DNA of 49,372 nucleotides from Escherichia phage Eco_BIFF: sequence record MH285980; one strand, 5' to 3'. The notes under the pieces are model-generated. The model ran no database searches. It had not been told where the DNA came from and worked only from the letters and a program-made list of their open reading frames with translations. Positions 5,809-42,475 of the stretch are shown here, one piece after another. The translations under genes were made by a program, and so were the position numbers. Every line of letters starts with the position of its first letter. Within the stretch, counting starts at the first letter, position 1.

Positions 5809-5828
5809 GCTTTAACAAAAAGTGCTAT
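5809..5828 (-). repeat. copy of the 20-bp element (inverted) between capsid-associated gene and major capsid gene
   Basis: Plus strand reads GCTTTAACAAAAAGTGCTAT, immediately before terminator 5836..5862; only a weak -10 (TATACA) at the cassette position. Confidence 0.4.
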
Positions 5829-6891: not shown

Positions 6892-7179
6892 ATGGCTAAA
6901 GAAAAAACTGTTGTTATCGTAAACGTTGGTGTAGCTCTTCAGATGTTCCGTCTTGAAGATGGTTCCTTTGCTAAAGTTCTTCCAGATGAAGAGGTCACGC
7001 TTCCGGCGTCCGTTCTTGATTTACCTGGCCTGCGTTGCTTAATTGCTCGCGAAGAAATCGAAGTTAAAGACGACAGTGCAACCAACCGCAAAATCCGCGC
7101 TGAAATGGCAAAGATCACGAAGCCAGATCCGTGGGATAGCAAAAGCGTTAAAGAGCTTGAGGACGGCGGCGAATATTAA
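6892..7179 (+). CDS. hypothetical virion protein
   Basis: 95-aa ORF with RBS GGAGAAA, between two terminators in the structural operon. Confidence 0.4.
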   Translation: MAKEKTVVIVNVGVALQMFRLEDGSFAKVLPDEEVTLPASVLDLPGLRCLIAREEIEVKDDSATNRKIRAEMAKITKPDPWDSKSVKELEDGGEY

Positions 7180-7185
7180 TCATCA

Positions 7186-7210
7186 AGGCGCTCATGTAGC
7201 GCCTTTTTTT
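7186..7210 (+). terminator. intrinsic terminator
   Basis: AGGCGCT-catgt-AGCGCCT then T7. Confidence 0.65.
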
Positions 7211-7223
7211 ATGGGGGTAAATT

Positions 7224-7634
7224 ATGAATCAAGAAACTTTAATTGCAGTTATTGAGCAAATGCGAAAGCTGGTTCCTGCACTTCGCAAGGTTCCAGACGA
7301 AACGCTTTATTCGTGGGTAGAAATGGCTGAGCTATTTGTATGCCAGAAGACCTTTAAAGATGCATACGTCAAGGCGCTTGCTCTTTATGCATTGCACCTT
7401 GCTTTCCTTGATGGGGCGCTAAAAGGTGAAGATGAGGATCTTGAATCGTACTCACGACGCGTTACGTCATTCTCCCTGAGCGGTGAATTTAGCCAGACTT
7501 TCGGAGAGGTGACGAAGAACCAGTCAGGAAACATGATGCTTTCGACGCCGTGGGGTAAGATGTTCGAACAGCTTAAGGCGCGACGACGTGGTCGATTCGC
7601 ATTAATGACAGGACACCGTGGAGGATGCCACTAA
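7224..7634 (+). CDS. head-tail connector/adaptor protein (putative)
   Basis: 136-aa ORF in head-tail joining region; position only. Confidence 0.35.
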   Translation: MNQETLIAVIEQMRKLVPALRKVPDETLYSWVEMAELFVCQKTFKDAYVKALALYALHLAFLDGALKGEDEDLESYSRRVTSFSLSGEFSQTFGEVTKNQSGNMMLSTPWGKMFEQLKARRRGRFALMTGHRGGCH

Positions 7635-9572: not shown

Positions 9573-9592
9573 CTTTTAACAAAAAGTGCTAT
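9573..9592 (-). repeat. copy of the 20-bp element (inverted) abutting the RBS of the G-like chaperone gene
   Basis: Plus strand reads CTTTTAACAAAAAGTGCTAT directly followed by CAACCAATCAGGAG and ATG 9614. Confidence 0.4.
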
Positions 9593-20242: not shown

Positions 20243-20265
20243 GCACCTTGCGGTGCTTTTCTTTT
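20242..20265. terminator. terminator hairpin between convergent tail operon and cor-like gene
   Basis: AGCACC-ttgc-GGTGCT then TTTTCTTTT on plus strand. Confidence 0.55.
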
Positions 20266-20491
20266 ATATCGAGCAATCGTGAGACTTGAAGTTTTTCTCT
20301 GATACGTAGTTGAAGGAGAATGGGTATCCAGCACGCAATAGCATCTCCTCTCCGCGCATCTTAGATCCAAAAACGTAAACCGAGTACTCTGCGCCTCCTG
20401 ATTCATAAATTGCCGTACAAGTGCTCTCAGGCATCGATGAGCAACCAGTCAGGATGAATGCAGCGGCAATAATGGTGATTAATTTTTTCAT
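20264..20491 (-). CDS. Cor/Llp-like superinfection-exclusion lipoprotein
   Basis: 75 aa; signal peptide with lipobox LTGC then small Cys-containing domain; divergent from AT-rich control region. Confidence 0.55.
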   Translation of the reverse strand: MKKLITIIAAAFILTGCSSMPESTCTAIYESGGAEYSVYVFGSKMRGEEMLLRAGYPFSFNYVSEKNFKSHDCSI

Positions 20492-21015
20492 TTGTATGTC
20501 CTCGTCGTTAGTGTGATTGCATTGTATGTCGCATTTACTTTTATTGCAATAGCACGATTACAATTTTTTCGTGTAACAGGTGTCTATTTTTGTAACCGGA
20601 ACTGGTGTTACAAAATCCACCCCATACGACAGCAGAGGGATATGATAAAAACTCTATATAATATATATAGATAGATAATATTTAATTTTAGCTTTATATA
20701 TAATTATTGTTGTGTAACAGTTGTCTATCGTGTAACTGGTGATTTGATTGATTCGTCAAATTTCTATCATATATGTTCAAAATTTAATCAATATGGATTC
20801 TATTTGTAGATATCTCTGTATTTCTAAGAAAAAGCGGTTACAAGTATTACACAGTAGACATCACATAAAAATATACCTAAGCCATTGATTCTGTTAATTC
20901 TGGTTGTAACTTGAGCAATATAGACATGCTATTACACGCCAATTACATGTATTTTATTGACTAAACGCCGTTAATGGCTATAATGGATTCATCGTAAACG
21001 AAGGAGGTAAACGCA
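20492..21015. promoter_or_regulatory. AT-rich divergent control region with TGTAAC/GTTACA repeats
   Basis: ~9 copies of TGTAAC or GTTACA, (TA)n tracts, sigma70 promoter at 20957..20984; no credible ORF. Confidence 0.5.
20957..20984 (+). promoter_or_regulatory. sigma70-type promoter for the recombination operon
   Basis: TTGACT, 16-bp spacer, TATAAT; ~30 nt before RBS of 21016..22080. Confidence 0.6.
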
Positions 21016-22080
21016 ATGTTCCAAGTATTCACATCAAGCCAGCTTTCTAATGACGAGTATCATAGCAACGAAGGTTGGGCGGCAGAGTATGTAAGCGGAT
21101 CGAGCCTTGCAGAAATTTATCAGACTTGCCCGGCTAACTGGCGATTCAAGAAGAACGAGACAACGAAAGCTCTTGAGTTCGGTACTCAGTCGCATACCAA
21201 CTTTGAGAGCCGAGATCTGTTTACTTCATCGTATGCCCGTTGCCCGGATCCGTCAGAGTTTAAAGATCTCATTACTTCGCAGGCGGCGCTGGCAGCAAAA
21301 TTAAAATCTTTTGGTCTGAAAGGTACATCCGGTAAGCAGTACCCTGACCTCATCAAAATGATGGTTGATTGTGGTGAAGAACTTAACGTTCAATACCTGA
21401 TTGAACTAATCGCAGAAGCTGAGGCGCGCGCTGAAGGAAAGCAACTTGTTGATGCTGACAAATACGACGCATGCATGAAGATGAGGGCTATACTTGAGCA
21501 AAATCCTGATCATGAGGCGTGCATTAACAGTGAAACAGCGCAGCGTGAGATTTCAATCTTCGGTGAGATATCCGGTGTCAAAGTTAAGGTTCGACTCGAT
21601 CATCTTGACTACAAAGAGAATGTCCCGGGTCGTGTTCTGACTGGTTATGATGAGAATGGCGATCCGGTGTATGAGGACGTAATTTTCCCTGAAGCGCTGA
21701 TTATTACTGACTTCAAAACTACGATGAGCGCAAACCCGTTAGAGTTCCCGCGACTGGCATACAATCACGGGTATTATCTGAAAATGGCATTGCAGCATGA
21801 CCTGCTACGACGAGCAATCCAGGCTGGCGCATTTGAAGGAAACTTCCCGGAAGATATCCCGATCGTAGTTCGATTGCTTGCGCAGGAGAAAAAGGAGCCT
21901 TATATCGCACTGGCTTACCGTATGACTATGGAGCAAATCAGGATCGGTCGTAACCAGTACATTAGCGTAGTCCACACTTACAAGGCTTGCTCTGAAATGG
22001 ATGTTTGGCCTGGATACGCTGGCGACGCAAGCGAGATTGAACTTGAAACTCCGTCATGGGTGCGATATCAAAACAAGTAA
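21016..22080 (+). CDS. PD-(D/E)XK recombination exonuclease (RecE/YqaJ-like)
   Basis: 354 aa; D...ITDFKT nuclease-like motif; first gene behind strong sigma70 promoter and RBS GAAGGAGG; followed by annealase and SSB. Confidence 0.5.
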   Translation: MFQVFTSSQLSNDEYHSNEGWAAEYVSGSSLAEIYQTCPANWRFKKNETTKALEFGTQSHTNFESRDLFTSSYARCPDPSEFKDLITSQAALAAKLKSFGLKGTSGKQYPDLIKMMVDCGEELNVQYLIELIAEAEARAEGKQLVDADKYDACMKMRAILEQNPDHEACINSETAQREISIFGEISGVKVKVRLDHLDYKENVPGRVLTGYDENGDPVYEDVIFPEALIITDFKTTMSANPLEFPRLAYNHGYYLKMALQHDLLRRAIQAGAFEGNFPEDIPIVVRLLAQEKKEPYIALAYRMTMEQIRIGRNQYISVVHTYKACSEMDVWPGYAGDASEIELETPSWVRYQNK

Positions 22081-25865: not shown

Positions 25866-25909
25866 ATGTTAACCCGCTACGCGTCGATTGTTTTAACTAA
25901 AAATGCTAT
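25866..25909 (-). promoter_or_regulatory. promoter cassette: 20-bp element + 18-bp spacer + -10 TAACAT; upstream of primase
   Basis: Element ATAGCATTTTTAGTTAAAAC on minus strand; -10 sits in loop of hairpin followed by T-run; 27 nt before GTG 25832. Confidence 0.45.
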
Positions 25910-26345
25910 TGGTCGTTCCGATATCTTCCTTCTTCACGACGCGCATAAATTTCTTATTCTTGCATCGCTTCTCAAGGCATTTGCCGTTACCGTCAAACTT
26001 CAGGTCGAATCTAAGCCAGGCGGCGCGGAATCCTTTACACCCCTGACGGCGGTAAGCACGATGCGCAGCTTCAGCACCTTGCCACGAAATCATGTTGCGA
26101 TCTTTCCAGCCTTGCACTGTTTGATTGCTAACTTTCAAAGCCTTTGCGCAGGCCGCTGGACCGCCGTAATATTCAATAAGAGCGTCAAGTCGCGCTCGCA
26201 GTCCCGCTCGTGTTTCTTCTTTATGAATATAGAAGCCGCAGCGCTGTCGAGGCTTTTTGTCTTTACCGCGTCGCGTTCCGTTGTTACCATTAATGTGACG
26301 TTTATCGATTTCACCAGTTGACTCTGCGATACGTTGCATATTCAT
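25893..26345 (-). CDS. HTH DNA-binding protein (putative regulator)
   Basis: Start moved to ATG 26345 (RBS AGGAG 7 nt upstream); Cro/XRE-like helix-turn-helix segment LKVSNQTVQGW. Confidence 0.4.
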   Translation of the reverse strand: MNMQRIAESTGEIDKRHINGNNGTRRGKDKKPRQRCGFYIHKEETRAGLRARLDALIEYYGGPAACAKALKVSNQTVQGWKDRNMISWQGAEAAHRAYRRQGCKGFRAAWLRFDLKFDGNGKCLEKRCKNKKFMRVVKKEDIGTTNSIFS

Positions 26346-26357
26346 CTTAATTCTCCT

Positions 26358-26401
26358 GTAGCACTTTTTGCTAAAAACGTTTACTGTATGTCGTGTATTA
26401 T
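26358..26401 (+). promoter_or_regulatory. promoter cassette (-10 TATTAT); upstream of helicase
   Basis: GTAGCACTTTTTGCTAAAAA + 18 bp + TATTAT; 32 nt before helicase start. Confidence 0.5.
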
Positions 26402-26439
26402 AGCGTAAACGATACAACGATTCAAAGGATTAAATAGCT

Positions 26440-33825: not shown

Positions 33826-33869
33826 AATATACCCGATACGAGATCGGGTGTTTTAACAAAAAGTGCTAT
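33826..33869 (-). promoter_or_regulatory. promoter cassette (-10 TATATT)
   Basis: Minus-strand ATAGCACTTTTTGTTAAAAC + 18 bp + TATATT; 24 nt before ATG 33795. Confidence 0.5.
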
Positions 33870-34389: not shown

Positions 34390-35958
34390 TTAACCCATCA
34401 GTCGAGGATTGATGAAAACAATATCATCAATTCGGCAAGTGTAATTCATCTCTTCGAGCGTGATTAGAAGACTATCGATTCGCTCAGATACTTTCTGTTG
34501 ACCGTTGAACGGCGTAACGTTCCGGCACTTTGCAACAATACTATGAATAGGTGCGCGCCCCTTGTTCTTCTTTGCGATCTCAGTGATAACATCAATCAGC
34601 TTACGAGATTCAGCCTCATCACCAGCATACCCGGCAGCGCTGGCGGACGACAGATAAGTCCTGGAAAGCTCATTGAAAATCATGATCGCTTCCTGCATTG
34701 TTTCAAGGTCAATCTCACGGTTGGAACGGTTCGGTGATTCACCCTCCCAATTCTTGATCGTGTGGAGAACTGAAGCAATACGCAAAGCGTGCTTATCGAA
34801 CTTGCCGAGATGACCGCGAAGCATTGAGTGAGAGTATTTCCCCCCGGCGGCGAAATCAGGCTCCATCGCCTGGCGCGCAAGGTTTAATTCACGCATAGCA
34901 TTACGGCTAACAGAGAGAACAACGTTGTCCTCCTTCATGATGTTGTGCACGAGTCTGTAATATTTGCTAACCAGTCCGCGATCGACTTCTTTATACAGTG
35001 CATCACCATTTTCATCACAAAGAATACGAGTACCTAAAAGCGGTTCCTCTCGAACCAGGAGGAAACGCTCAGATACACCGATACCGCGCTGGCCTGCGTC
35101 CATGATACCCTTGATTGTTTCATCCTGAGCAATTACGCAGATTGAACCGACCGGACAAAGAGACAAGTTATTGTCCTGGTTTGAACGCGCGACCTCCATA
35201 TGGTTTTTATCCCACGCCTTAAGGATAAGCTCACTGTTAGATTTCTTATCTGAACCGCCATACGTAAGCCCGAGCAATGTATTGATTGCCGTTGCCTCGT
35301 CAGATATTACGGAAAAGTGACCTTGCACTGCCGCCACTTTCGCAAGACCTTCAGGTGTAGGATCTGATACCGCGAAAACAATATCAGCCATCTTCTTGAT
35401 CTTCTCTTCCAGTTTTTCTTTGTCCTCGTACAGAGCCGCCGTCGTGTTACCCTTCGGGTCGTTTTTGATTTCCTTCTCGACCTGACGTAGCTGACTGGTT
35501 AAACGGATACGTTCATTTTTACGCTCTTCATTCAGTCGCTGAATCTCCGCACGCATAGGCGTAATCGCCGCTGAGTTAATCGCTGATTTGCCTGTTGATG
35601 GTGGCTGACTGATTACCATGTAAAGCGCTGTCGGCTGTTCTTCTCCATGATATTGCACCCAAAACTTCCCGAGCATCGCGGCTGAGATGCAACCGATAAA
35701 ATGAGCATACGCGGATGAAACCGGGAACTGGACTGATTCAGCTTTTGCTTTTGCATATTCGAATACCAAGTTATCGCCACCTAACGAAATCAGAGGGAAC
35801 TTATCGTTTCCGCTGTTGATATCGATCGGATCTTGCCAAAAAGAAACTGAATCCCCGTAACTGTTTTCACGAATTGCGATCGCCACCGGATTCACTCCAG
35901 TGCTATTTGCGATCTCAATAATCTGTTGGTAATTCAGTTTTGGCTTAATATTAAACAT
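34390..35958 (-). CDS. P-loop NTPase of unknown function (coiled-coil between Walker A and Walker B)
   Basis: Start set at ATG 35958 (RBS AAGGAG); Walker A-like PPSTGKS, helical insert, Walker B-like FSVISDEAT; no family assignment possible. Confidence 0.45.
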   Translation of the reverse strand: MFNIKPKLNYQQIIEIANSTGVNPVAIAIRENSYGDSVSFWQDPIDINSGNDKFPLISLGGDNLVFEYAKAKAESVQFPVSSAYAHFIGCISAAMLGKFWVQYHGEEQPTALYMVISQPPSTGKSAINSAAITPMRAEIQRLNEERKNERIRLTSQLRQVEKEIKNDPKGNTTAALYEDKEKLEEKIKKMADIVFAVSDPTPEGLAKVAAVQGHFSVISDEATAINTLLGLTYGGSDKKSNSELILKAWDKNHMEVARSNQDNNLSLCPVGSICVIAQDETIKGIMDAGQRGIGVSERFLLVREEPLLGTRILCDENGDALYKEVDRGLVSKYYRLVHNIMKEDNVVLSVSRNAMRELNLARQAMEPDFAAGGKYSHSMLRGHLGKFDKHALRIASVLHTIKNWEGESPNRSNREIDLETMQEAIMIFNELSRTYLSSASAAGYAGDEAESRKLIDVITEIAKKNKGRAPIHSIVAKCRNVTPFNGQQKVSERIDSLLITLEEMNYTCRIDDIVFINPRLMG

Positions 35959-36031: not shown

Positions 36032-36503
36032 TCGATCCGTGATTCTCATGAAAACCAAGATCAATGAGTATTGAATCTCTTAAATCTATAGCCTCACTAA
36101 CAGTGTCAACGCACCTTCCGTAAGTCTTACCCATAAATCTAACTCTTACCCTGTAAGAGCCTGATTTCATAGGGTATATGCAATTCATGCCAGATGTGTT
36201 ATTTTTGTTTAGACTTCTATTTGTTGTGTTCCCTTCTCTAGTTACAAGTCTTAAATTTTCAATTCTATCATCACCTGGTATATGGTTTATGTGGTCTATT
36301 TCCATACCTTCAGGTATCTGGCCGTTAAAAATAGTCCATACATATCTATGTCTATAAACCATCCTAAACCCATCATAAAACCTACAGTAACCCAGCCTAT
36401 CTAACTTTCCAGTCTCTCTCCCAACAAGGTTTTTAAATCTAGTGTTACTCTTATAATAAATAATTCCATCAACATATAAAAAATCATCTCTTATATTTAT
36501 CAT
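36018..36503 (-). CDS. HNH homing endonuclease (HNH + AP2-like domain)
   Basis: EIDHINHIPGDDRIENLRLVTREGN motif plus AP2-like GSYRVRVRFMGKTYG; AGA/ATA-rich codon usage; paralogue of 45598..46092. Confidence 0.7.
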   Translation of the reverse strand: MINIRDDFLYVDGIIYYKSNTRFKNLVGRETGKLDRLGYCRFYDGFRMVYRHRYVWTIFNGQIPEGMEIDHINHIPGDDRIENLRLVTREGNTTNRSLNKNNTSGMNCIYPMKSGSYRVRVRFMGKTYGRCVDTVSEAIDLRDSILIDLGFHENHGSNSIF

Positions 36504-36916
36504 GAGTACAATCCTTCAAAACAAGTGCCGTCTGCAATGATGAATCCGACATCCGCACGAAATAAATTCCAGCGGCAACCATCCTCATCAAAGATGTAAC
36601 CAGCTACGCCACCGAGAGCGCGACCGCTTTCAACCTGGTAACGCTTGCCAACTTTGAATGATTTTTTCATTGGGTTGCGATGGTCAAGTCCGGTGCACTT
36701 GATCGTCTTTGTTTTCAACTCGGTGAACTTCGCGAAGAAGATTTCATCAGATCCGTGAATATGTAATTCATCATGCCTTTCAAGTTTTAAATACTTCCCG
36801 CATTTTAACTTTACTTCGCGAGTACCATCATAGCGCTCACGACCTTTGTACAGATTGTTTACTTCGAATCCTGTGATTTTGTCTGCGGAAGTGCATTTAA
36901 GTTTGATGGATTTCAT
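36500..36916 (-). CDS. hypothetical early protein
   Basis: 138-aa ORF with RBS CAGGAG, 30 nt behind cassette 36953..36996. Confidence 0.45.
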   Translation of the reverse strand: MKSIKLKCTSADKITGFEVNNLYKGRERYDGTREVKLKCGKYLKLERHDELHIHGSDEIFFAKFTELKTKTIKCTGLDHRNPMKKSFKVGKRYQVESGRALGGVAGYIFDEDGCRWNLFRADVGFIIADGTCFEGLYS

Positions 36917-39004: not shown

Positions 39005-39048
39005 ATTATGCCAAATCGCACCGATCGAGTTTTAACAAAAAGTGCTAT
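39005..39048 (-). promoter_or_regulatory. promoter cassette (-10 TGGCATAAT)
   Basis: Minus-strand ATAGCACTTTTTGTTAAAAC + 18 bp + CATAAT; stop TAA of 39032..39736 lies inside; 32 nt before ATG 38966. Confidence 0.5.
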
Positions 39049-39814: not shown

Positions 39815-39999
39815 TCCAATAATTGCTCATTATTCCATCAATACTGGAATAGGTGGAATAATTTTGATTGTTATTGATTGCGAATGATGAAACGTGATTA
39901 TTGCATGGTGTGCAACAGTTGGTTGATTTGTTGCTGAGATTGCAATGATTGTGAGAGGGAGGATTTAGTGTTGCCCTGTTCGCCTGGTAGTCATCTCCA

Positions 40000-40019
40000 T
40001 TTTTAGCAAAAAGTGCTAT
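40000..40019 (-). repeat. copy of the 20-bp element without a properly spaced -10
   Basis: Minus-strand ATAGCACTTTTTGCTAAAAA at the edge of the AT-rich divergent region; hexamer at the cassette position is GAACAG. Confidence 0.35.
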
Positions 40020-40023
40020 CGAT

Positions 40024-40420
40024 TACACTTTAACTTGTCACGACTGTAATATTTGTCTAGAATCGCACTTGTGACAAAAATACACACTGTGACGCCTCAC
40101 AATATACATATAGATATATGTATATATATAATATATATAGTGTTTTTTTTATTTATATATAGATAATTATATTGTAATAGTTGTGTATAGCTGTCTTACA
40201 TTGTCTAGCGTACTGTTGGCATATTTCTATCTGCATGTTTATATATACAGTACTTTTTTGAGAGCCATATATTTCTATAGTGGCTATAGACAGCTAGACA
40301 AATGTTACACGGCTTAAAATTGGCTCGCAGGCATTGACAGCTCTACATCGCGATGTCACAATGGCAATTGTTGACACATTATGACACCATTTACACACGA
40401 ATAGACAAAGAGGATATATT
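40024..40420. promoter_or_regulatory. AT-rich divergent control region with TGTGACA/TGTCACA/CTAGACA repeats
   Basis: Repeated TGTGACA, TGTCACA, TGTCTAGA words and (TA)n tracts between leftward and rightward early clusters; TTGACA boxes at 40334 and 40371. Confidence 0.5.
40334..40362 (+). promoter_or_regulatory. sigma70-type promoter for the first rightward early gene
   Basis: TTGACA, 17-bp spacer, CACAAT; second TTGACA at 40371..40376. Confidence 0.45.
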
Positions 40421-40936
40421 ATGAGCAATACCAGTCAGGAGTTAAAAATCACCGATATGATTCGCCTAACCTGCGATGCAATGTACCGCGACAAAGGCAT
40501 GAATGAGTTCTCTTTCGTGGCTGATGATATGGCCCTCGAGGCCGCGCGATTCTACTTCCGTGACCAGGAGGTAAGTGATGACGATCTTGAATCTGCCGCT
40601 GCCGGATGGGTGGACCAGAACCAGGGGGAGGTAGAGAAGCGATTCAAGTCCGCTTTCATCACTCCGATCATTACCAGGCACTTTTGCAAGTATGGCAAGG
40701 TGGCAAAGGTGAAGGTAGGCCGGAATGACGCTGCAATCACAATGATAACGGTTATCGTTACCGACGAAGAGGTTCCCGTGAAGAAGCGCCGCAGTCGGAA
40801 AAAAGTTAGCCTGGCCGATTGCCTGGATTCGTTTGTGGTTGATGTGGGCAAACTGGCTGATAGCGAATTGATGACTCGTGACGTAAACGAGATCGTTCGC
40901 CAGATGAAAGCGCATATCGAAAAGTGTGGACTGTAA
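40421..40936 (+). CDS. hypothetical early protein (first rightward early gene)
   Basis: 171-aa ORF with RBS AAGAGG behind sigma70-like promoter 40334..40362; GC-richer than neighbours. Confidence 0.45.
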   Translation: MSNTSQELKITDMIRLTCDAMYRDKGMNEFSFVADDMALEAARFYFRDQEVSDDDLESAAAGWVDQNQGEVEKRFKSAFITPIITRHFCKYGKVAKVKVGRNDAAITMITVIVTDEEVPVKKRRSRKKVSLADCLDSFVVDVGKLADSELMTRDVNEIVRQMKAHIEKCGL

Positions 40937-40939
40937 GAG

Positions 40940-41188
40940 GTGATGACCATGAGCAAGATTAAGTACGACGCTCTGAAAGGTGTATTAATGCAACTAAATC
41001 CAGGCGAAGCATTTCAGCTTAACCCCGAGACTTTTGGATTCAATGGTGATTATCGTACAACCTTCGAATTTGTCCGGTATGTAAAGAAGGAGTTTGGATT
41101 CGAAGTTATTCACGCAGGTCTTGTCAGTGGCATTCAGACGTTCATCTTTAAGCCAAATGAGATTCGCTGCTTCACTTTGATGAAATAG
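40940..41188 (+). CDS. hypothetical early protein
   Basis: 82-aa ORF; stop TAG lies inside element 41185..41204. Confidence 0.45.
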   Translation: MMTMSKIKYDALKGVLMQLNPGEAFQLNPETFGFNGDYRTTFEFVRYVKKEFGFEVIHAGLVSGIQTFIFKPNEIRCFTLMK

Positions 41189-41228
41189 CACTTTTTGTTA
41201 AAACCGGATCGGGATAACCTGGTATAGT
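41185..41228 (+). promoter_or_regulatory. promoter cassette (-10 TGGTATAGT)
   Basis: ATAGCACTTTTTGTTAAAAC + 18 bp + TATAGT; 25 nt before ATG 41260. Confidence 0.55.
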
Positions 41229-41819: not shown

Positions 41820-42326
41820 ATGTTAAAATTAGAAGACGTAAAATTCCCGATTAAGTTTATCAGCCTGGGTTGCGGTGAAATTACATTCGCCAGTGAAGAT
41901 AAGGGCAAATGGGCCACTGATGAGGTGTCTCAGCTTAAGTTGGATTGGTTTATCGCCAGACATAACGAAGTGAATAAAGAAAATTCACCAAACAAGGACT
42001 ACCACTACATTATGAGTGGCGATCTGGGTGCGAAAGGCATGTTTGATGGCTGGAAGATTGAACGCTCCATATTTCACTTCGCAAAGCCAGAAATTAAGCC
42101 TATGCTGCAATGCACTCAGATCGAGAACATGCCATTGAGCGCGACGCTAAAAGGAGTGCAGCTTGATGATAAATCATGGCTTGAAATCACCGCCACGCCG
42201 AAAGCTATTGAAGTGCACGACGATATCGTCACTCTTCTATTGCATTATGGCGGCTTCAAACACAAAACGGTATCAGGTGAAATCAGTATTAAGCGCGGAA
42301 CGCTTGTACGCTATGAGGTGAAATAA
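41820..42326 (+). CDS. hypothetical early protein
   Basis: 168-aa ORF, RBS AAAGGAAA, behind cassette 41746..41789. Confidence 0.45.
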   Translation: MLKLEDVKFPIKFISLGCGEITFASEDKGKWATDEVSQLKLDWFIARHNEVNKENSPNKDYHYIMSGDLGAKGMFDGWKIERSIFHFAKPEIKPMLQCTQIENMPLSATLKGVQLDDKSWLEITATPKAIEVHDDIVTLLLHYGGFKHKTVSGEISIKRGTLVRYEVK

Positions 42327-42475
42327 TGACGGCGTGGATTTTAATTATCTTGATGAGTACCGGGCCGGATCACGTATACATGGAGAGCCAACAATCATGC
42401 AATAAGGCACGGGAAGTTATCGCAGAGAATAAGCCGTTCGGGTACGAAGTTAAAACAATGTGCGTTAAACGATAG
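42326..42475 (+). CDS. small hydrophobic protein (49 aa)
   Basis: ATG overlaps upstream stop (TAATG); N-terminal hydrophobic segment; stop TAG inside element 42472..42491. Confidence 0.3.
   Translation: MTAWILIILMSTGPDHVYMESQQSCNKAREVIAENKPFGYEVKTMCVKR

Follow-up and report, generated by a model that had tools for sequence, protein, structure and literature searches.

The genome of Escherichia phage Eco_BIFF (sequence record MH285980; 49,372 nucleotides, the whole of which was analysed and is called the window here) is that of a Tunavirus, a T1-like phage, and it holds two non-coding regions in which short repeats are clustered around an AT-rich core. Region 1 (20492–21015) is flanked by cor (20264–20491, minus strand) and exoVIII (21016–22080, plus strand), and region 2 (40024–40420), about 19.5 kb away, separates the leftward and rightward early gene clusters. 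Both are 92–96% identical to their counterparts in T1, JMPW1, IME18 and others. An earlier note, made from the letters alone, had described both regions as AT-rich and free of any credible open reading frame. This description holds: G+C content is ~31–32% in both regions and 45% in the window, and the longest reading frames encode 60 and 46 amino acids, both from TTG starts. One reading frame in region 1 (20748–20888, plus strand, TTG start) is the equivalent of a 46-amino-acid coding sequence of the T1 record, CPTT1_049; it probably is not a gene because the annotations of U136B, Bas11, tonnikala and GML-KpCol1 contain nothing corresponding to it. Rfam at gathering thresholds gave no match anywhere in the window.

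Each region is organized as a module with the same order of parts. From left to right, a box related to a family-wide ATAGCAC repeat and CGATTACA are followed by repeat cluster A, a GC-richer box, a (TA)n/ATT core of ~70 bp, cluster B, an AT-rich spacer of 80–95 bp, the inverted clusters C and D, a sigma70 promoter, a ribosome-binding site and the first gene. Clusters A and B share one direction, and C and D the opposite one. Module 1 comprises the following features.

20549–20565, plus strand: degenerate copy of the ATAGCAC box, then CGATTACA; left edge of the module, aligning with the inverted box of module 2.
20571–20612, plus strand: cluster A, with TGTAAC at 20572, TGTCTA at 20581, TGTAAC at 20591 and an inverted GTTACA at 20607; the first three start 9–10 bp apart.
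20616–20639: GC-richer box separating cluster A from the AT core; varies within Tunavirus.
20640–20709: AT core of (TA)n, TCTATATAAT and ATT-rich sequence; second least stable duplex stretch of the window (z ~5).
20710–20741, plus strand: cluster B, with TGTAAC at 20713, TGTCTA at 20722 and TGTAAC at 20731, 9 bp apart.
20742–20835: AT-rich spacer on which B and C converge, with a 24-nt imperfect palindrome and the ATTTCTATC...ATGTT block, which is conserved; fourth least stable stretch. The doubtful 46-amino-acid reading frame extends across this spacer and cluster C.
20837–20860, minus strand: cluster C, inverted, with GTTACA at 20837, ATTACA at 20846 and TAGACA at 20855.
20905–20948, minus strand: cluster D, with TGTAAC at 20905 (plus strand) and inverted TAGACA at 20921, ATTACA at 20931 and ATTACA at 20942.
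20957–20984, plus strand: putative sigma70-type promoter of exoVIII/erf/ssb, TTGACT-16-TATAAT, matching the consensus at 11/12 positions.

Cluster D ends 9 bp 5′ of the −35 hexamer of this promoter, which takes the position of the promoter annotated in T1 and is kept as TTGACT...TACAAT in other genera. Module 2 and its left flank comprise the following.

40003–40019, minus strand: exact ATAGCACnnnTTGnTAA repeat pointing leftward; left edge of the module.
40036–40092, plus strand: cluster A, with TGTCAC at 40036, TGTAAT at 40045, TGTCTA at 40054 and TGTGAC at 40070 and 40086; the first three are 9 bp apart.
40035–40063: promoter-like consensus match TTGTCA-17-TAGAAT, overlapping cluster A.
40091–40100: GC-richer box separating cluster A from the AT core.
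40097–40172: AT core, the least stable duplex stretch of the window (z 5.5–5.9).
40173–40207, plus strand: cluster B, with TGTAAT at 40173, TGTGTA at 40182, TGTCTT at 40192 and TGTCTA at 40202, 9–10 bp apart.
40208–40286: spacer with the conserved ATTTCTATC...ATGTT block.
40287–40309, minus strand: cluster C, inverted, with TAGACA at 40287 and 40295 and GTTACA at 40304; it constitutes inverted repeat I4, 94% complementary to 40045–40060.
40334–40407, minus strand: cluster D, of looser TGTNNN words (TGTCAC at 40354, TAGACA at 40402 and others).
40334–40362: putative rightward promoter TTGACA-17-CACAAT with TG, a consensus match overlapping cluster D; the ATG of the first rightward early gene is at 40421.
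39840–39990: GATT-repeat zone close to pac, which adjoins the module on its left and lies outside it.

The sigma70-type promoters that the earlier note had seen in both regions are thus present as consensus matches with 16–17 bp spacing; the number of promoter-like matches is not significantly above that in shuffled sequence.

The repeats are real and far above chance. Roughly nine copies of TGTAAC/GTTACA had been noted in region 1; the exact count there is seven, of 24 in the whole window, and four TGTAAT/ATTACA variants bring TGTAAY to 11, alongside four copies of TGTCTA/TAGACA. Of the words noted for region 2, CTAGACA/TGTCTAG does recur (three copies), but TGTGACA and TGTCACA occur once each. 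More telling are the words that region 2 has in common with region 1, namely TGTCTA/TAGACA (five copies), TGTAAY (three) and TGTSAC (four). The maximum of seven TGTAAC in a 524-bp stretch compares with a highest value of four in 300 dinucleotide shuffles of the whole window. When each region was shuffled alone, the 11 copies observed in region 1 (0.89 expected) were reached in 0 of 2,000 dinucleotide shuffles and the six in region 2 (0.91 expected) in 1 of 2,000. Each module carries ~14 hexamers in direct and inverted arrays, their starts 9–10 bp apart inside the clusters. The two main words also combine into a composite 15-mer, TGTAAY-N3-TGTCTA, which is exact at 20572, 20713 and 40045 on the plus strand and at 40295 on the minus strand and has one mismatch at 40173 (plus strand); at up to one mismatch it occurs nowhere else in the window.

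Regions 1 and 2 align collinearly through a 16-nt identical TATATAATATATATAG block in the AT core, TTGTGTAAYAGYTGTCT, ATTTCTATC and further blocks. Local alignment of one region to the other gives z values, relative to dinucleotide shuffles, of 9.0 in the window, 27.8 in U136B, 46.5 in Rtp and 57.3 in Webervirus. In every genus tested, then, the two regions are paralogous copies of one module; the earlier note had remarked neither on this paralogy nor on the common composite motif. The (TA)n tracts, which it did report for region 1, are present as the AT cores. By nearest-neighbour energies, the cores of module 2 and module 1 rank first and second in the window for low duplex stability (z ~5–6), and in a cross-genome comparison of 80-mers each of the four complete genomes, which represent four genera, has precisely its two AT cores as the two least stable. 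The AT core of module 1 is, from its sequence, a candidate DNA-unwinding element.

Conservation of the repeats in relatives, which the earlier note had proposed as a check, is borne out. Across 14 distinct Tunavirus sequences, 92% of iteron positions are invariant, compared with 69% of other non-coding positions (Fisher P = 3.5 × 10−6); cluster A of module 1 is nearly invariant and its AT core is 97% invariant, and six or seven TGTAAC are kept in all Tunavirus relatives. This pattern indicates that the iterons and the AT core are under purifying selection within Tunavirus. Beyond the genus, the two-copy layout is kept in four genera of Drexlerviridae. A non-coding stretch of ~500 bp lies 5′ of exoVIII in Tempevirinae (Bas11, U136B, tonnikala) and Webervirus, and a shorter one, followed by extra genes ahead of exoVIII, in Rtpvirus and Rogunavirus. 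Positions relative to the exoVIII ATG are approximately constant across genera: −445 to −410 for cluster A, −375 to −305 for the core, −305 to −285 for B, −180 to −160 for C and −120 to −80 for D. The second copy in each genus sits at the divergent junction of the early clusters, uses the word of that genus as well and has an AT core much like that of the first. More distant phages with 34–37% identical exoVIII lack the module because the sequence 5′ of exoVIII is coding. What changes within this layout is the repeated word itself.

Tunavirus, and a relative with 79% exoVIII identity: TGTAAC and TGTCTA.
Sister phage of that relative: TGTAATC.
Rtp and Rogue-type phages: TGTAAC/CGTAAC with GTATAC.
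Tempevirinae: TTGTTC/TGTTTC-type.
Webervirus: GTAAGAT, with 18 copies in 50 kb, 10 of them in region 1 and 3 in region 2.
Other lineages: further types.

The record of Webervirus GML-KpCol1 has the second module (42012–42362) inverted relative to the first (7089–7583) and the exoVIII block directly 3′ of primase, and the polarity of each module towards its own downstream genes is kept. In other genera the GC-richer box takes the form GCG-N-AAAWTT (CGTAAATTTCGC in Webervirus and CCGCGGAAAAT in Rtp, for instance) and is found again on the module's right side, perhaps as the site of a second protein.

Genus-specific words set in a fixed layout point to a reader encoded by the phage. Our working explanation, to which we give somewhat less than even weight, is that the two modules are the two replication origins of the phage, or one origin and a second cis-acting replication site. 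To date the modules are the leading candidates for replication origins in T1-type phages, and each candidate origin module is most likely physically coupled to a strong early promoter. We infer that replication starts at the modules, that a protein binds the repeats and that this process is coupled to transcription. In the mechanism we propose, a phage-encoded protein would read the phased six-base iterons TGTAAY and TGTCTA, whose arrays run in the same direction on either side of the AT core and, as B against C, are opposed across the AT-rich spacer. Binding and oligomerization would distort and then open the weakest DNA of the genome, the replicative helicase would be loaded at the opened AT core, and a separate DnaG-type primase would start synthesis. 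The favoured reader would be the winged helix at the C terminus of gp09, a protein that would then load itself as initiator in the manner of the Rep proteins of staphylococcal pathogenicity islands (SaPIs). Transcription from the flanking early promoters may aid opening, and the iterons of cluster D, when occupied, may modulate the early promoters just 3′ of them. A stronger form of this idea strikes us as rather doubtful: two paralogous origins at which the MCM-like helicase would self-load through the genus-specific hexamers, with the same complex also occupying the early promoters, which would make origin firing one event with the shutting off or boosting of early transcription.

The protein gp09 (34390–35958, minus strand) belongs to DUF3987, a family described as MCM-related replicative helicases of superfamily 6 (SF6) that carry a winged helix at the C terminus (PMC4889955); a DnaG-type primase is encoded separately. 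The predicted structure of gp09 is that of an MCM-like AAA+ replicative helicase with a C-terminal winged helix, in which a helix-strand-helix-helix-strand-strand domain matches the winged helices of ORC, Cdc6 and MCM. The helicase reading frame as listed begins at TTG 36021; the true start is probably ATG 35958, as more than 100 homologues begin there, ~21 residues later. By analogy with the SaPI system, we infer that this C-terminal domain is the favoured candidate for reading the iterons. In two sister phages, one with TGTAAC and one with TGTAATC, the gp09 substitutions specific to the TGTAATC phage are concentrated in the C-terminal domain (13 of 81 residues, compared with 18 of 433 elsewhere; P = 3 × 10−4), and those specific to the TGTAAC phage or to the window show no such enrichment.

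Other early proteins were considered as readers. The Cro/YdaS-like helix-turn-helix protein gp23 (25893–26417), encoded 5′ of primase, was rejected as favourite because changes in the iterons are not mirrored in its helix-turn-helix, which is identical in the TGTAAC and TGTAATC sister phages and similar between Webervirus and Tempevirinae. We speculate that gp23, which is strongly conserved, is a better candidate for reading the family-wide ATAGCAC repeat. The product of the gene just 5′ of the helicase gene, gp07 (36500–36916), has a mosaic N-terminal half; it is predicted to form two SH3-like barrels, most closely matching Bas11 Gp54, which does not make it an obvious reader of sequence. A genus-specific reader encoded by the first gene rightward of module 2 was also set aside, the products of that gene being weakly related or unrelated between genera and lacking a DNA-binding signature. 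Pfam found no other DNA-binding domain among 24 early proteins, 20 further small ones included.

Several observations weigh against origins read by gp09. Cluster D lies ~−45 to −90 from the exoVIII transcription start, a typical position for transcription-factor sites, and constraints from host RNA polymerase or nucleoid proteins, rather than unwinding, could account for the cross-genus conservation of the AT core. The gp09 gene is 4 kb and 13 kb from the two modules, whereas SaPI origins lie directly beside rep. A direct contrast of the substitutions specific to each sister phage shows no significant difference for the C-terminal domain of gp09 (P = 0.15); across 53 loci, with phylogeny controlled, all replication proteins are correlated with iteron similarity to about the same degree (partial r 0.27–0.46); and T1-like phages and Rtp both use TGTAAC, yet their gp09 winged helices differ strongly. 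Neither region contains a DnaA box (TTWTNCACA), and the 921 bp of the two modules contain no GATC and hence no cluster of them, although a phage initiator would need neither; with 237 GATC in the window (~1 per 208 bp) and ~3–4 expected in 921 bp after allowing for AT-richness, this depletion is marginal. The main rival explanation is transcriptional. The repeats might be operator arrays for a phage-encoded regulator that switches the divergent early promoters of cor/exoVIII and of the leftward and rightward early clusters, perhaps by looping between opposed clusters, with the AT core serving as promoter, UP-element or curved DNA. We consider this possible though unlikely. The best sigma70 consensus promoters of the neighbourhood do sit in both regions, the 9-bp relation of cluster D to the exoVIII −35 hexamer is kept across genera, and the opposed clusters, B against C and the two arms of I4, are consistent with looping. 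Genus-specific words would suit a phage regulator as well as an initiator, and since the iteron words are clustered nowhere else, the regulon would be exactly these four early promoters. But gp23, the only recognizable helix-turn-helix regulator, does not track the word changes, the Pfam survey of the 24 early proteins offers no substitute, and ~14 sites per 400 bp around the most meltable stretch, in both copies and four genera, exceed the usual needs of promoter control. The roles of origin and operator are not mutually exclusive and could coexist.

The remaining explanations account for less of the pattern. The earlier note was right to look to origin or regulator sites as the class of explanation; its suggestion of a host factor, with TGTGA...TCACA as CRP half-sites, does not stand. 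TGTGA and TCACA words are indeed present in region 2, one isolated match to the IHF consensus occurs at 20878 (minus strand), and AT-rich DNA is a generic target of H-NS. Yet TGTGA-N6-TCACA at up to two mismatches has 21 matches in the window against 23 expected, with one two-mismatch match in region 2, none in region 1 and none at up to one mismatch in either, and scans for CRP, DnaA, IHF and GATC showed no enrichment in the regions. The word, moreover, differs between phages of the same host, Escherichia coli (TGTAAC in T1-like and TTGTTC in TLS-like phages), and is different once more in Klebsiella phages (GTAAGAT), with no change in layout, so a host protein cannot explain the repeats. This turnover largely refutes CRP, DnaA, IHF or H-NS as the reader, an explanation we regard as highly improbable. 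Recognition sites for the small terminase, as part of pac, are just as improbable in our view. T1-record coordinate 1 maps to window position 39900, ~125 bp left of region 2, and the T1, TLS/U136B and Rtp records all have their coordinate 1 in an equivalent GATT zone ~115–135 bp left of module 2; the pac of TLS has been placed by restriction analysis at the start of the TLS record (PMC11447400), and thus nearby. The GATT zone is nevertheless separate from the module, and module 1 has none despite holding more iterons. According to classical work, T1 reportedly has a single pac. Short words do recur more often in AT-rich intergenic DNA, and both regions are AT-rich, but shuffles confined to the regions almost never reach the observed counts, the words are conserved within Tunavirus and the same layout returns in other genera, which leaves low-complexity sequence a negligible prospect as the source of the repeats.

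The candidate origins share their ingredients with known systems. The Rep proteins of SaPIs are self-loading helicases, Rep1 and PriRep5 of superfamily 3 (SF3) and Rep2 of SF6, whose C-terminal winged helix recognizes penta- or hexanucleotide iterons; a SaPI origin has 6–12 iterons around a central AT-rich region, opposed on its two sides, and two hexamers are thought to load, one per side (PMC9371898). The T1-like modules resemble those of SaPI and the related SCCmec Cch in having short iterons on both sides of an AT-rich centre and an MCM-like helicase with a winged helix. They differ from them in that the modules, at ~20.5 kb and ~40.0 kb, are not immediately 3′ of the helicase gene, and in having two copies per genome, each with four clusters, two AT-rich segments and a fused early promoter. 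The T1-like element would also serve a virulent Gram-negative siphophage and not a satellite, and the binding of gp09 to the iterons is proposed by analogy. In phage P4, ori and crr lie 4.5 kb apart and carry the same short iterons, both bound by the C-terminal DNA-binding domain of the alpha primase-helicase. T1-like phages are similar in having two separated regions with the same short iterons, presumably cis-acting as in P4, but alpha is an SF3 fusion whereas the T1-like primase and helicase are separate genes, and the separation is ~19.5 kb rather than 4.5 kb. The lambda origin, inside the O gene, has four 19-bp iterons adjoining an AT-rich segment, a likeness to the modules, and the T7 and T4 origins have no iteron arrays but, like the modules, place a strong promoter beside easily melted DNA. 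Phage SPP1 has two origins, oriL and oriR, bound by one phage protein, G38P (PMC3485210). It is likewise a virulent pac-type siphophage with two discrete origin regions; it differs in using a dedicated origin-binding protein, a loader and a DnaB-type helicase, in having oriL inside gene 38 and in having unrelated repeats. It is the combination of SaPI-type ingredients with two copies recalling SPP1 and P4 that favours two iteron-type origins.

Iterons with an AT-rich unwinding segment are a known kind of element; the duplicated, promoter-coupled T1-type version, conserved across the family, appears to be undescribed. A literature search on the origin, pac and transcription of T1, which did not extend to its genome paper of 2004, yielded one relevant study, the paper on TLS. 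That paper sought lambda-like repeats inside the helicase gene and found none, reported no iterons or origin-type repeats in TLS and, as a 2024 archetype study, raised open questions on intergenic repeats with no mention of hexamer iterons or AT cores (PMC11447400). The two regions go unmentioned in the other Drexlerviridae genome papers examined. T1 belongs to the original set of T phages, and members of Drexlerviridae are common in the laboratory, in fermentation and in therapy. The analysis supplies two precise candidate sites with base-level anatomy, a family-wide rule of fixed layout and changing word, and a named candidate reader. If the origin interpretation is true, it would give a classical T phage the origin that it has lacked for 80 years, carry the self-loading, MCM-like mode of initiation known from staphylococcal islands over to virulent phages of enterobacteria and represent the first such system in a virulent coliphage; once confirmed, it would offer origin and specificity parts for phage engineering. 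If the repeats are operators instead, the modules define the early-promoter operators of the family.

The box at the edge of each module belongs to a distinct element. A 21-nt intergenic repeat of unknown function has been described in TLS, similar ones were remarked in T1, Rtp and Rogue1, and the TLS repeats point in the direction of transcription (PMC11447400). In the window, the repeat (aaATAGCACnnnTTGnTAAAA; test pattern ATAGCACnnnTTGnTAAAA) is exact at 40003–40019 (minus strand) and degenerate at 20549 (plus strand), so that one copy bounds each module, and at up to one mismatch ATAGCACnnnTTGnTAA has 18 copies, compared with 0.02 expected. Unlike the hexamer iterons, it is unclustered, lies ahead of operons and keeps the same word in all genera. 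Its sites include 41185–41201 (plus strand), 39032–39048 (minus strand) and 33853–33869 (minus strand), and at most sites a TGnTATAGT-like extended −10 element follows ~22 nt later. Exact copies of the ATAGCAC repeat also occur at 5812–5828 and 9576–9592 (both minus strand), in short gaps of the plus-strand structural block and pointing in the opposite direction. Within the GATT zone to the left of module 2, the recurring words are TTGATTG, AATGATG and TTGCAATGATTG, and a TTGCA...TGCAA inverted repeat spans 39901–39916.
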